Part shown: piece after piece, positions 4,784 through 59,064 of the stretch
How the letters are laid out: each line of letters starts with the position of its first letter
Position numbering within the stretch: the first letter of the stretch is position 1
Assembly: GCA_964016885.1 (NCBI GenBank)
Contig: OZ024741.1
Span: 321,966,001 to 322,030,000, forward strand
DNA from: Eledone cirrhosa
Taxonomy: Eukaryota
Length of the DNA stretch: 64,000 nucleotides
Direction of reading: 5' to 3'
Notes under the pieces: model-generated
What the model was told of the DNA's origin: nothing
Databases searched by the model: none
The model's input: the letters and a program-made list of their open reading frames with translations, nothing else
Program-made: the position numbers and the translations under genes

Positions 4784-5081
4784 ATAAAAACAAATAACGA
4801 AACGAAATTAAATTTCGTTTCGTTTGTAACTCACTTTTGTATGACTGACGCTCAAACAATTAAGTCAAAGATGTACATCCATATATGTATACTGAAATAC
4901 TAGTATGTATATGAATACACACACGTATACATATGTAGATGTACCAAGTTTTTTTTCACTGATCACTTTACTGTGAGTGGCCAGCTATTCTGTATGTAAA
5001 CACACAGACAAACCGGTTTTTAGAGTCATACTGGTTTTTGAGGAAACACCTTTCCTCTATTCTCCAGAAAGCCAGACAAGG

Positions 5082-5126
5082 AATATTGAACTAGTTTCGT
5101 TGTTGTTACAACTCATCAGCAATATT
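5082..5126 (-). ncRNA. Type I hammerhead ribozyme, first of 6 minus-strand copies (starts 5082, 5551, 6020, 6489, 6958, 7427)
   Basis: Reverse complement of the motif described at 7845-7889. Confidence 0.88.
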
Positions 5127-7844
5127 TACCTATCTTCCGGCCTCTCTAGAGAATCGTAAAAGCACATATCGCTATATGCTTTTTCTATGAAAATTAGTAG
5201 TGGGCAGACCAACTTGCATAGAGTGTGAGTAAGTACCGGTTCAACGGAGACGATAAAAACAAATAACGAAACGAAATTAAATTTCGTTTCGTTTGTAACT
5301 CACTTTTGTATGACTGACGCTCAAACAATTAAGTCAAAGATGTACATCCATATATGTATACTGAAATACTAGTATGTATATGAATACACACACGTGTACA
5401 TATGTAGATGTACCAAGTTTTTTTTCACTGATCACTTTACTGTGAGTGGCCAGCTATTCTGTATGTAAACACACAGACAAACCGGTTTTTAGAGTCATAC
5501 TGGTTTTTGAGGAAACACCTTTCCTCTATTCTCCAGAAAGCCAGACAAGGAATATTGAACTAGTTTCGTTGTTGTTACAACTCATCAGCAATATTTACCT
5601 ATCTTCCGGCCTCTCTAGAGAATCGTAAAAGCACATATCGCTATATGCTTTTTCTATGAAAATTAGTAGTGGGCAGACCAACTTGCATAGAGTGTGAGTA
5701 AGTACCGGTTCAACGGAGACGATAAAAACAAATAACGAAACGAAATTAAATTTCGTTTCGTTTGTAACTCACTTTTGTATGACTGACGCTCAAACAATTA
5801 AGTCAAAGATGTACATCCATATATGTATACTGAAATACTAGTATGTATATGAATACACACACGTATACATATGTAGATGTACCAAGTTTTTTTTCACTGA
5901 TCACTTTACTGTGAGTGGCCAGCTATTCTGTATGTAAACACACAGACAAACCGGTTTTTAGAGTCATACTGGTTTTTGAGGAAACACCTTTCCTCTATTC
6001 TCCAGAAAGCCAGACAAGGAATATTGAACTAGTTTCGTTGTTGTTACAACTCATCAGCAATATTTACCTATCTTCCGGCCTCTCTAGAGAATCGTAAAAG
6101 CACATATCGCTATATGCTTTTTCTATGAAAATTAGTAGTGGGCAGACCAACTTGCATAGAGTGTGAGTAAGTACCGGTTCAACGGAGACGATAAAAACAA
6201 ATAACGAAACGAAATTAAATTTCGTTTCGTTTGTAACTCACTTTTGTATGACTGACGCTCAAACAATTAAGTCAAAGATGTACATCCATATATGTATACT
6301 GAAATACTAGTATGTATATGAATACACACACGTATACATATGTAGATGTACCAAGTTTTTTTTCACTGATCACTTTACTGTGAGTGGCCAGCTATTCTGT
6401 ATGTAAACACACAGACAAACCGGTTTTTAGAGTCATACTGGTTTTTGAGGAAACACCTTTCCTCTATTCTCCAGAAAGCCAGACAAGGAATATTGAACTA
6501 GTTTCGTTGTTGTTACAACTCATCAGCAATATTTACCTATCTTCCGGCCTCTCTAGAGAATCGTAAAAGCACATATCGCTATATGCTTTTTCTATGAAAA
6601 TTAGTAGTGGGCAGACCAACTTGCATAGAGTGTGAGTAAGTACCGGTTCAACGGAGACGATAAAAACAAATAACGAAACGAAATTAAATTTCGTTTCGTT
6701 TGTAACTCACTTTTGTATGACTGACGCTCAAACAATTAAGTCAAAGATGTACATCCATATATGTATACTGAAATACTAGTATGTATATGAATACACACAC
6801 GTATACATATGTAGATGTACCAAGTTTTTTTTCACTGATCACTTTACTGTGAGTGGCCAGCTATTCTGTATGTAAACACACAGACAAACCGGTTTTTAGA
6901 GTCATACTGGTTTTTGAGGAAACACCTTTCCTCTATTCTCCAGAAAGCCAGACAAGGAATATTGAACTAGTTTCGTTGTTGTTACAACTCATCAGCAATA
7001 TTTACCTATCTTCCGGCCTCTCTAGAGAATCGTAAAAGCACATATCGCTATATGCTTTTTCTATGAAAATTAGTAGTGGGCAGACCAACTTGCATAGAGT
7101 GTGAGTAAGTACCGGTTCAACGGAGACGATAAAAACAAATAACGAAACGAAATTAAATTTCGTTTCGTTTGTAACTCACTTTTGTATGACTGACGCTCAA
7201 ACAATTAAGTCAAAGATGTACATCCATATATGTATACTGAAATACTAGTATGTATATGAATACACACACGTATACATATGTAGATGTACCAAGTTTTTTT
7301 TCACTGATCACTTTACTGTGAGTGGCCAGCTATTCTGTATGTAAACACACAGACAAACCGGTTTTTAGAGTCATACTGGTTTTTGAGGAAACACCTTTCC
7401 TCTATTCTCCAGAAAGCCAGACAAGGAATATTGAACTAGTTTCGTTGTTGTTACAACTCATCAGCAATATTTACCTATCTTCCGGCCTCTCTAGAGAATC
7501 GTAAAAGCACATATCGCTATATGCTTTTTCTATGAAAATTAGTAGTGGGCAGACCAACTTGCATAGAGTGTGAGTAAGTACCGGTTCAACGGAGACGATA
7601 AAAACAAATAACGAAACGAAATTAAATTTCGTTTCGTTTGTAACTCACTTTTGTATGACTGACGCTCAAACAATTAAGTCAAAGATGTACATCCATATAT
7701 GTATACTGAAATACTAGTATGTATATGAATACACACACGTATACATATGTAGATGTACCAAGTTTTTTTTCACTGATCACTTTACTGAAAAGCATATAGC
7801 GATATGTGCTTTTACGATTCTCTAGAGAGGCCGGAAGATAGGTA

Positions 7845-57800: not shown

Positions 57801-58668
57801 TCTGAAAAATACACCCAGTACACATACATAGAGATACACATATACACATACATATATACATGCATACATACATAATACTTATATACATAGATACATATCC
57901 TCATCATCAATCTAATGGCCGTTTTTCTTGTTAGTGAGTGATGTCACAGGCTAAGTTTATACTTAATCAAACCTACTGACCTCTCAGATTGGCCAAGGGC
58001 CCTCATCTCACTGGCACTAGAGAGGTTGTCATGTCCTTGACAGAACTGAAAAGACATTTCAACGTTTTGTTTGGCATGGTTTCACCGACTGGATGCCTTC
58101 ACAAACAATAAACACTTTATAGAATATATATATATAATGAAGGAAGTGTGGTAAGGAACCAGGTGGACCATAACGTACCAGAGTACTTGATACTTAGGGT
58201 AGTAGAGTGGGTAATAGGAAATGAGTAAGGATAAACCTGGTCAGACCTGGCTGTCAAAATGGCCGGAGGTCAGCCGTCAGGTTCCTGACTCTTTTCCTAT
58301 ATATATAACAAAATACACCCCCGTCCCACCACCCCCACCCCATCCACCGCCCCTTTCAATGTAAAGTTATGTTGGTGCCACAACATCCAGGCCGAAAAAA
58401 ATGAGATCGTGTAGGTGTCACAACAAAAAACACACAGTCCACGCTGTAATGTGGCCGTGTAGGCAACACGGTAAAAACCTCCTAGCCCCACACTGTAAAT
58501 GTGGTTGGTGTTAGGAAGGGCATCCAGCTGTAGAAAACCCGCCAGACAGTCCTATGCGAGCAAGATAATCACTCTTGCCTCAAGTGGGAAAACCCCCGTC
58601 CAAACCCATGCAAGCGTGGAAGATGGACGTTAAACGTTGATGATGATGATGATATATATATATATATA

Positions 58669-59064
58669 AAGAGTGAGAAATGAAATTTCATTTTTTCCAT
58701 TTATCGTTTTCGGTACGCCCGGCCGACTAACTCACTCGATATGAAAATTAGGCTGCTCAGCCGTTAATATGCATAAGGAAAGTATATACTTTCAAACATT
58801 CAATCAACTGACAGGAAGGTATACGGTGCTGATGACAGCTAATAAGCTAGAAACTAGTTCATCGTTCCTTTGTCAGTGTTGAACAAAATGGCAACGATGG
58901 TACGGCTTAATTCAGGCTGTTTGTTTACAAACAAACCGAGCATTATAATAAATGTTCGGTAAACCCATACGTACATATATATATGTGTGCATGTATGTAT
59001 GTATATACATACTACTGTACGTCTGTATACATATATGTATGTTCGTATACATACTTATATTTAT
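58669..59064 (+). mobile_element. Single ~400-bp unit of a diverged homologue of the 469-bp HHR element, within (TA)n
   Basis: Collinear similarity with the 469-bp unit read in HHR sense: TTTATCGT, ACT.ACTCAC, CATA..AAAG.ATATA, the HHR, CTGT.TGTTTACA.ACA, ATATACATACTA, GTATACATATATG.ATGT. Confidence 0.8.
58823..58865 (+). ncRNA. Type I hammerhead ribozyme
   Basis: ACGGTG-CTGATGA-C-AGCT(AATA)AGCT-A-GAA-AC(TA)GT-T-CATCGT. Stem I is 6 bp. The base of stem II is a C.A mismatch. Confidence 0.78.

Follow-up and report, generated by a model that had tools for sequence, protein, structure and literature searches.

We analysed hammerhead ribozymes (HHRs) and the retroelements that carry them in a 64,000-nt window of the Eledone cirrhosa genome (contig OZ024741.1, positions 321,966,001 to 322,030,000; assembly 3.0 Gb), which is AT-rich and dense in microsatellites. 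A sequence-only reading had placed HHR motifs at eight loci of this window, and a CTGANGA...GAAA core was found at all of them, at positions 7852 and onwards in a tandem array, 19181, 20278 (minus strand), 24326 (minus) with 24376, 35526 (minus), 36807, 37079 and 58829. Comparison of the window copies with other loci of the genome (numbered L036, L318 and so on) showed that all eight motifs are members of dispersed families with an HHR core, labelled here F1 to F8. The loci are a mixture of non-coding retrozymes (F1-F3) and truncated ends of protein-coding Penelope-like elements (PLEs), comprising the 3' ends of two Hydra-type PLEs (F4, F5), one of apparent CCHH type (F7) and one probably so (F6), with F8 unassigned. 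Where an insertion has two arms, almost always one arm ends at a fixed site A and the other at a fixed site B, a rule common to retrozymes and protein-coding PLEs. Site B lies 37-90 nt further 3' than A, the interval being the PLE 'tail'; within the F1 unit, A falls at phases 321-330 and B at phases 395-400. The features of the window are as follows.

4784..7787, minus strand: F1 left arm, 6.41 copies of a 469-nt unit; 3' end at site B (phase 400); 1 mismatch in 3004 nt
7788..13267, plus strand: right arm of F1 (11.68 copies), whose 3' end falls at site A, phase 321; no mismatch over 5480 nt
7845..7889, plus strand: F1 type I HHR with a 7-bp stem I, a 5-bp stem II and a short stem III that is palindromic
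13268..13279: right copy of the F1 target-site duplication (9-12 bp; left copy ends at 4783-4786), in an interrupted TA tract
14521..14692: two-armed short insert in the F3 group; the left arm is on the minus strand and carries the tail (B), and the right arm is on the plus strand and ends at A; inside a TA array called by Tandem Repeats Finder
18596..18709, minus strand: F2 left arm, 538-nt unit; ends at site A
18710..19508, plus strand: F2 right arm, 1.5 units; ends at site B
19173-19256, plus strand: F2 HHR with long stems II and III
20182..20358, minus strand: F5, 3' end (A type) of a putative Hydra-type PLE family; HHR core 20278
24140..24347, minus strand: F4 left arm, putative Hydra-type PLE 3' end with 84-nt tail (B); HHR core 24326
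24346..24478, plus strand: F4 right arm; ends at A; HHR core 24376
35408..35608, minus strand: F6, an older family whose HHR is minimal and of PLE type (core 35526); it terminates on (CA)n/(TA)n
36274..36926, plus strand: F7, 3' end of a young PLE family, apparently of CCHH type; stem I of its minimal HHR (core 36807) is 2 bp long
36956..37212, plus strand: F8, old HHR family (70-83% identity) with long stem II; core 37079
58669..59063, plus strand: F3 single arm, ~425-nt unit; ends at A; HHR core 58829

Hammerhead families beside TA tracts

A strict type I descriptor, applied with the array collapsed to one unit, gave 3 matches in the window against a shuffle mean of 0.07, and none of 100 shuffles reached 3. 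With a relaxed descriptor, four of the eight loci passed (the array, 19181, 24326/24376 and 58829). The other four failed as window copies: 20278 has a weak stem II, 35526 carries two changes relative to its own family, 36807 has the 2-bp stem I of most of its family members, and 37079 is old and decayed. In each of these cases, however, the core is retained among members of the dispersed family from which the copy comes (951, 4560, 1612 and 629 first-look candidates, respectively, with 40 scored each). PLE HHRs with short stems, a palindromic stem III, a bulge before stem II or a 2-bp stem I are on record (PMC4209133). An Rfam scan of the window returned no family at gathering score, and the weaker matches listed by E-value were only microRNA hairpin models on TA repeats and palindromes; no transfer RNA gene was found in the window. 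Folding of isolated HHRs gave z near 0, no better than shuffles, and is uninformative.

We then turned to unselected DNA, namely four 100-kb blocks at round coordinates on the largest contigs. These contained 55 motifs in 25 loci (3, 12, 8 and 2 per block), while none was found in any of 8 shuffles. A TA run lay within 300 nt downstream of 26 of the 28 outermost motifs, compared with 22.6% of background positions, a test limited to outermost motifs of families without internal TA, and all ten two-strand loci diverged. HHR density above that of shuffles, enrichment next to TA and a bias in inversion polarity, as proposed in the sequence-only reading, were all borne out in this sample. The window, with 4 loci in 56 kb (~1 per 14 kb, as against 1 per 16 kb in unselected DNA), is typical and no hotspot. 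Extrapolation from the four blocks, a thin base, suggests that the genome may hold ~190,000 HHR loci (range 60,000-360,000).

Within the window, 10 of 13 3' ends abut a TA run, and among F1 3' ends at other loci the proportion was 51 of 59, both against 5% of background positions. At the locus at 35496 (CA)n comes first, and relatives of the locus at 37072 often terminate in (TTA)n or unique DNA.

Two-armed insertions and their end sites

A genome search with F1 gave 337 candidates, and 35 arrays were scored. Twenty-seven were two-armed, all of them diverging, and 8 were single-armed. Where both ends were visible, one was A and the other B in 26 of 26 arrays; the 27th runs into an assembly gap. 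A further F1 A/B pair was present in L095, a locus fetched for another reason. The 19 chains of F2 comprised 14 A/B, 1 B/B and 4 other, and the 22 chains of F3 were divided equally between A/B (11) and other or ambiguous (11). For F4, 17 of 20 chains were A/B and 3 unresolved; for F5, 7 of 10 were A/B (tail alignment partial in 3) and 3 other; three Neptune-like PLE families gave 7 A/B in 9 chains. The counts for F2-F5 and the Neptune-like families were tallied by hand with duplicates removed (duplicates L168, L199, L125, L173 and L176, second copies in L101 and L306, and a simple-repeat row in L083 were dropped). Taken together, resolved pairs at selected loci were A/B in 83 of 84 cases, and those in unselected DNA in 11 of 12; the one pair that departs from this belongs to a compound array.

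Direct junctions diverged in 108 of 109 cases, the converging one (L141) consisting of two 3' ends that meet across TA. Head-to-head copies with a one-sided tail were seen for F1-F5 and three coding families, and not for F6-F8 in the loci examined. The minus-left, plus-right geometry described earlier for four window loci was confirmed at each, although two sets of boundaries needed correction (to 24140-24478 for F4, and to a start at 18596 for F2), and the insert at 14521-14692, earlier counted among the HHR-family loci, has no HHR and corresponds to the end region of the family at 58823. Independent contigs showed TA-joined ends at phases 326 and 400, as well as the junction and unique flank of L050. 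The window's own inversion junction was bridged by no contig among those listed, which proves nothing.

We used sequence variants to examine the template. In 9 of the 10 informative arrays, all covering copies in both arms carried the array-specific F1 variant, and six such variants were each confined to one of the 35 arrays; a circular template best explains, in our reading of these sequences, variants fixed through all copies. F1 arms spanned 0.14-13.5 units, their lengths were uncorrelated (rho -0.04), and the A arm was the longer in 11 of 26 arrays. Inner ends fell at the predicted HHR cut site in 0 of 54 cases, and the phases on the two sides of the junction lay within 30 nt of each other in 6 of 27 arrays, compared with 3.5 expected by chance, and are thus near random. 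Target-site duplications of 9-13 bp were found in 7 of 34 F1 arrays; in 17 the flanks were pure TA and uninformative, 2 had longer ambiguous words and 8 had none.

The compound retrozyme array (L318:5250-L319:4750) has mixed units of 511-551 nt on its left, followed by 12 units of 468 nt, and both its outer ends are B. The 468-nt units alternate strictly between two variants, which fits a dimeric circle or a higher-order repeat.

Retrozymes and Penelope-like elements

F1, F2 and F3 are dispersed, non-coding tandem units of a few hundred nucleotides, each with a type I HHR, as retrozymes are, and we class them on these features as non-coding retrozymes with units of 469, 538 and ~425 nt. The F1 array has no ATG frame above 23 aa on either strand and is ~36% GC. 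Each unit carries one HHR (18 in the array) with a predicted cut after 7882 (phase 95), and the unit occurs elsewhere in the genome at 100% identity. F1 and F3 could be aligned around the whole unit (63% over 773 columns), with covariation in stem I. The retrozyme unit folded with z of -7.4, which is not proof of self-cleavage or circular RNA. No endonuclease motif was linked to F2 or F3 units, and F1 and F3 neither matched any of 40 GIY-YIG loci beyond separate insertions nor resembled the ends of F4, F5 or P1 in their end regions. A second F1 haplotype is dominant in run X1, and the window haplotype therefore looks like a young minority branch. A genome search with this second haplotype gave no match, probably owing to words that are too frequent. 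F1 sequence was also present at low depth in runs X4-X20 (16 other organisms), once as a single unit-length contig; these may be relatives or carry-over and we do not interpret them. Among the runs listed as containing F1 there was none of RNA, which we do not count as evidence.

Longer copies of F4 and F5 contain a reverse transcriptase (RT)-type YRDD frame, plus a GIY-YIG endonuclease at the C terminus with a CxCX5C linker, CxxC and CxH motifs and no CCHH; the HHR lies in a terminal repeat and insertion is into (TA)n. A DKT motif in place of DKG is present in L277, and the F5 endonuclease was seen upstream in L193, in one frameshifted copy. The RWK motif was not found in partial Hydra-type frames over 250 aa, and Pfam gave no RT match for three Hydra-type frames. 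The motif match to PMC8557442 suggests that F4 and F5 are 3' ends of Hydra-clade-type PLEs, since the elements described there share the C-terminal GIY-YIG without CCHH, the CxCX5C and CxxC/CxH motifs, the HHR and the (TA)n targets, along with the DKT seen here in one copy. They differ in abundance: the available part of that paper describes few families outside cnidarians, whereas this genome gave 59,114 first-look candidates for the Hydra-type endonuclease, 150 of which were scored. Most F5 copies (L191-L210) and many F4 arms (L165-L190) share a single 5' limit, ~75-100 nt upstream of the HHR core; the RNA may begin there, or the point may mark a strong stop. At window 28404-28529 there is an F5-related fragment that has a tail but no HHR, which the sequence-only reading did not list.

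Of 20 F7 loci, one (L235) has a GIY-YIG frame of CCHH type upstream of the F7 sequence. For F6, such a frame was upstream of a relative only (L142) and in 0 of 20 of its own loci, and for F8 no frame or tandem array was traced. Elsewhere in the genome there are Neptune-like frames, 844-1096 aa long, in which RT and endonuclease motifs are present, and Neptune-like PLE repeats carry HHRs, some with the published U3-A8 core; in the families at L085:3270-8800 (minus), L097 and L103 the cores are altered to U3-A8 or further. Published Neptune-like and CCHH-type PLEs likewise have RT and GIY-YIG domains, a CX4CX2C linker, minimal HHRs (the U3-A8 core among them), inverted copies placed head to head, a tail on one end and 8-10 bp duplications (PMC8557442; PMC3846280; PMC4209133). 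In the available parts of these papers, however, the tail is optional or often one-sided, while here it was one-sided in 83 of 84 pairs, retrozymes included. Naiad PLEs, which have an N-terminal endonuclease and no canonical HHR, do not match, as the endonucleases here are C-terminal and HHRs are present. PLE frames with RT and GIY-YIG are abundant, some of them long and open, and the earlier proposal of a population of ribozyme-bearing, microsatellite-targeting retroelements is supported, refined to retrozymes and truncated PLE ends.

A hairpin of the form RCTC...GAGYRC, found post hoc, occurs in F2 and F4 at 4-9 nt 3' of each of the two sites and in F5 at the same distance 3' of A, compared with a background of 0.14 per kb. 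At the loci retrieved, 168 of 187 instances, which are of several sequence types, have the inner 3 bp paired; the instances are related and not independent. F1 and F3 are without this hairpin; its presence in F2 points to a Hydra-type partner for that family.

Origin of the paired arms

The back-to-back A and B arms in TA tracts probably arose from a paired PLE enzyme that cut both strands and primed at both ends, mostly on one RNA, which for the retrozymes was probably a circle. The families, HHR cores, TA flanks, 9-13 bp target duplications, outward 3' ends and the pairing of one A end with one B end are established. Outward 3' ends, one duplication around the whole unit, two fixed sites and shared variants fit two-end priming on one RNA. 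Both 3'-OH ends of a staggered target cut would act as primers, with one RT starting at A and its counterpart at B. Each RT would go round a circular retrozyme RNA 0.1-13.5 times, and would stop early on a linear PLE RNA; host repair would then join the two inner cDNA ends at unrelated positions, and failure of one side would give single-armed inserts. In Hydra-type RNAs the small hairpin 3' of each site, a post hoc element, may position the enzyme.

PAc (Poseidon of Anolis) provides a biochemical precedent, as it cuts and extends both strands in vitro at AT-rich targets, starts RT at two internal sites between which the tail lies, and is a predicted dimer (PMC11167929). Its tail is 30-40 nt, as against 37-90 nt here, and circular templates and pairing within a single event lay outside that work.

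A number of points weigh against paired priming on a single, often circular, RNA. No difference between strands was seen in the start site of PAc, and no HHR cleavage was needed in vitro (PMC11167929); retrozyme cleavage and circular RNA are predictions from sequence, F1 and F3 lack a traced partner PLE, and alignment of the F2 and F4 end regions was not above chance (z 1.1). One insertion, L055, joins two haplotypes, with one arm that starts on a 15-change haplotype and then switches. Period-2 variant runs occur in parts of single arms in L036, L048 and L057 and across 12 units of L318-L319, and units are mixed in the L318 left arm, indicating that not every copy came from one monomeric template and that dimeric templates or later duplication contribute. 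A strict dimeric-circle reading of L036, L048 and L057 was itself rejected, since the period-2 run covers only part of one arm. Near-perfect palindromes were found at 8 of 17 F4 junctions, as fold-back predicts, though the query itself is such a palindrome. With respect to the counts, 21 of 105 chains with an end elsewhere or hidden were omitted, two insertions (L138 and L318) have the same site, B, at both ends, and one end type was pre-set in F2-F5 by the use of window copies as queries, which is why the A/B count in unselected DNA matters.

We consider it possible, though unlikely, that paired priming is correct and the retrozyme template was a linear, uncleaved multimer, or that arrays grew after insertion by unequal exchange; local amplification of arrays is discussed in bioRxiv 10.64898/2026.07.22.740005. 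The period-2 runs and mixed units within single arms are in line with this, as is the use of unprocessed RNA as the main PAc substrate (PMC11167929), and 8 of 9 Xenopus dimers stayed uncleaved in vitro. Variants fixed across both opposite arms nevertheless need a one-unit bottleneck (nine arrays, with six variants in only one of 35), and near-identical multi-copy arms lie between intact target duplications, both of which speak against this reading.

Self-priming on an antisense template has been proposed for inverted copies (PMC3846280), and a single priming event could be followed by fold-back that builds the inverted arm, the endonuclease trimming the other end. The palindromic junctions of F4, shared by several F5 inserts, and two single-copy variants common to both arms (L038, L039) are what this would predict. 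It appears improbable, as F1 junction phases are near random, either arm may be the longer and most single-copy variants are not mirrored; moreover, in L273, L274, L275 and L278 a long A arm lacks the tail present on the short B arm, so that neither arm was copied from the other. Two independent insertions into one TA tract are very improbable and were already disfavoured: different families do pile up in one tract (flanks of L033 and L051) and two 3' ends meet across TA in L141, but inner junctions are mostly without TA, private variants are common to both arms, one duplication flanks the whole unit and ends are one of each in 83 of 84 pairs. That the motifs are chance matches in AT-rich DNA, or the arms long-read fold-back artefacts, is scarcely credible, and for the families already refuted: the lack of an Rfam match, the four failing window copies and the shuffle-like folding of isolated motifs are set against 55 motifs versus none in 8 shuffles, stem covariation of F1 with F3, the recurrence in independent contigs of fixed ends and of one specific junction, and the target duplications.

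In L1 twin priming, a single target supplies two primers and the result is an inverted arm with 3' ends pointing outward; the second primer anneals at variable internal sites. Here, by contrast, both sites are fixed and the arms overlap in sequence. Known animal non-long-terminal-repeat retrozymes are also non-coding, AT-rich tandem units with one type I HHR each and larger target duplications, for which PLE mobilisation and rolling-circle reverse transcription have been proposed (PMC7229834; bioRxiv 10.64898/2026.07.22.740005). The present arrays, known from DNA, differ in being two-armed and inverted with fixed PLE-type ends, the words 'inverted' and 'orientation' occurring 0 times in the available text of PMC7229834, and in a unit of 425-538 nt instead of the usual 170-450 nt. 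Opposite-strand HHR pairs 100-700 bp apart have been published (PMC4209133), as have HHRs in PLE repeats, copies arranged head to head, tails on one side, duplications of 8-10 bp, insertion directed to (TA)n, and retrozymes with their proposed PLE dependence. In the literature covered, which included few subscription papers and no supplements, we did not find two-armed retrozymes, a counted one-site-per-arm rule or variants shared across arms.

HHR families account for part of the palindromes, as had been suggested earlier: of 28 close inverted repeats in unselected DNA, 11 matched our limited family library and 17 did not. An unassigned TA-flanked short-palindrome family occurs five times in the 400 kb (L300:2166-2274, L302:6371-6486, L304:5992-6105, L310:4959-5110 and L315:563-676). 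A perfect 148-bp palindrome centred on a TA run (window 19802-19949) has converging 3' ends, the opposite polarity to the HHR families, and presumably lies at the 3' end of an RTE-type long interspersed nuclear element (LINE) fragment. Further palindromes outside the HHR families lie at window 27440-27543, 60551-60670 and 17800-17983. The window also holds a broken LINE at 43352-47614 (minus) with endonuclease-like and RT-like frames, an upstream zinc-knuckle frame and a related 3' piece at 40996-41973, and related 48-49 bp tandem units of another common repeat (35958-36066, 39405-39607, 49792-49956 and 53983-54315). Concealment by simple-repeat masking holds for two loci, which lie inside called TA arrays; at a density of 25 loci in 400 kb, a large class of this genome's repeats and palindromes escapes standard masking.

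The origin of inverted and tailed PLE insertions has been called unresolved (PMC8557442; PMC11167929), and that PLEs mobilise animal retrozymes has been proposed (PMC7229834). Our results link the spread of retrozymes with PLE enzymes through the anatomy of the insertions, rather than through co-occurrence. The one-site-per-arm rule and the variants shared across arms are two sharp predictions for the existing in vitro system. PLEs are the sister group of telomerase, and we hold it an evenly balanced question whether their integration is an obligatory asymmetric two-primer reaction, in which a dimer on one RNA would begin cDNA synthesis at A on the first target end and at B on the second, with two hairpin copies as guides and, in the case of a retrozyme, both enzymes rolling round the circle. 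If true, such a reaction would unite PLE tails, head-to-head inversions and retrozyme arrays in one mechanism.

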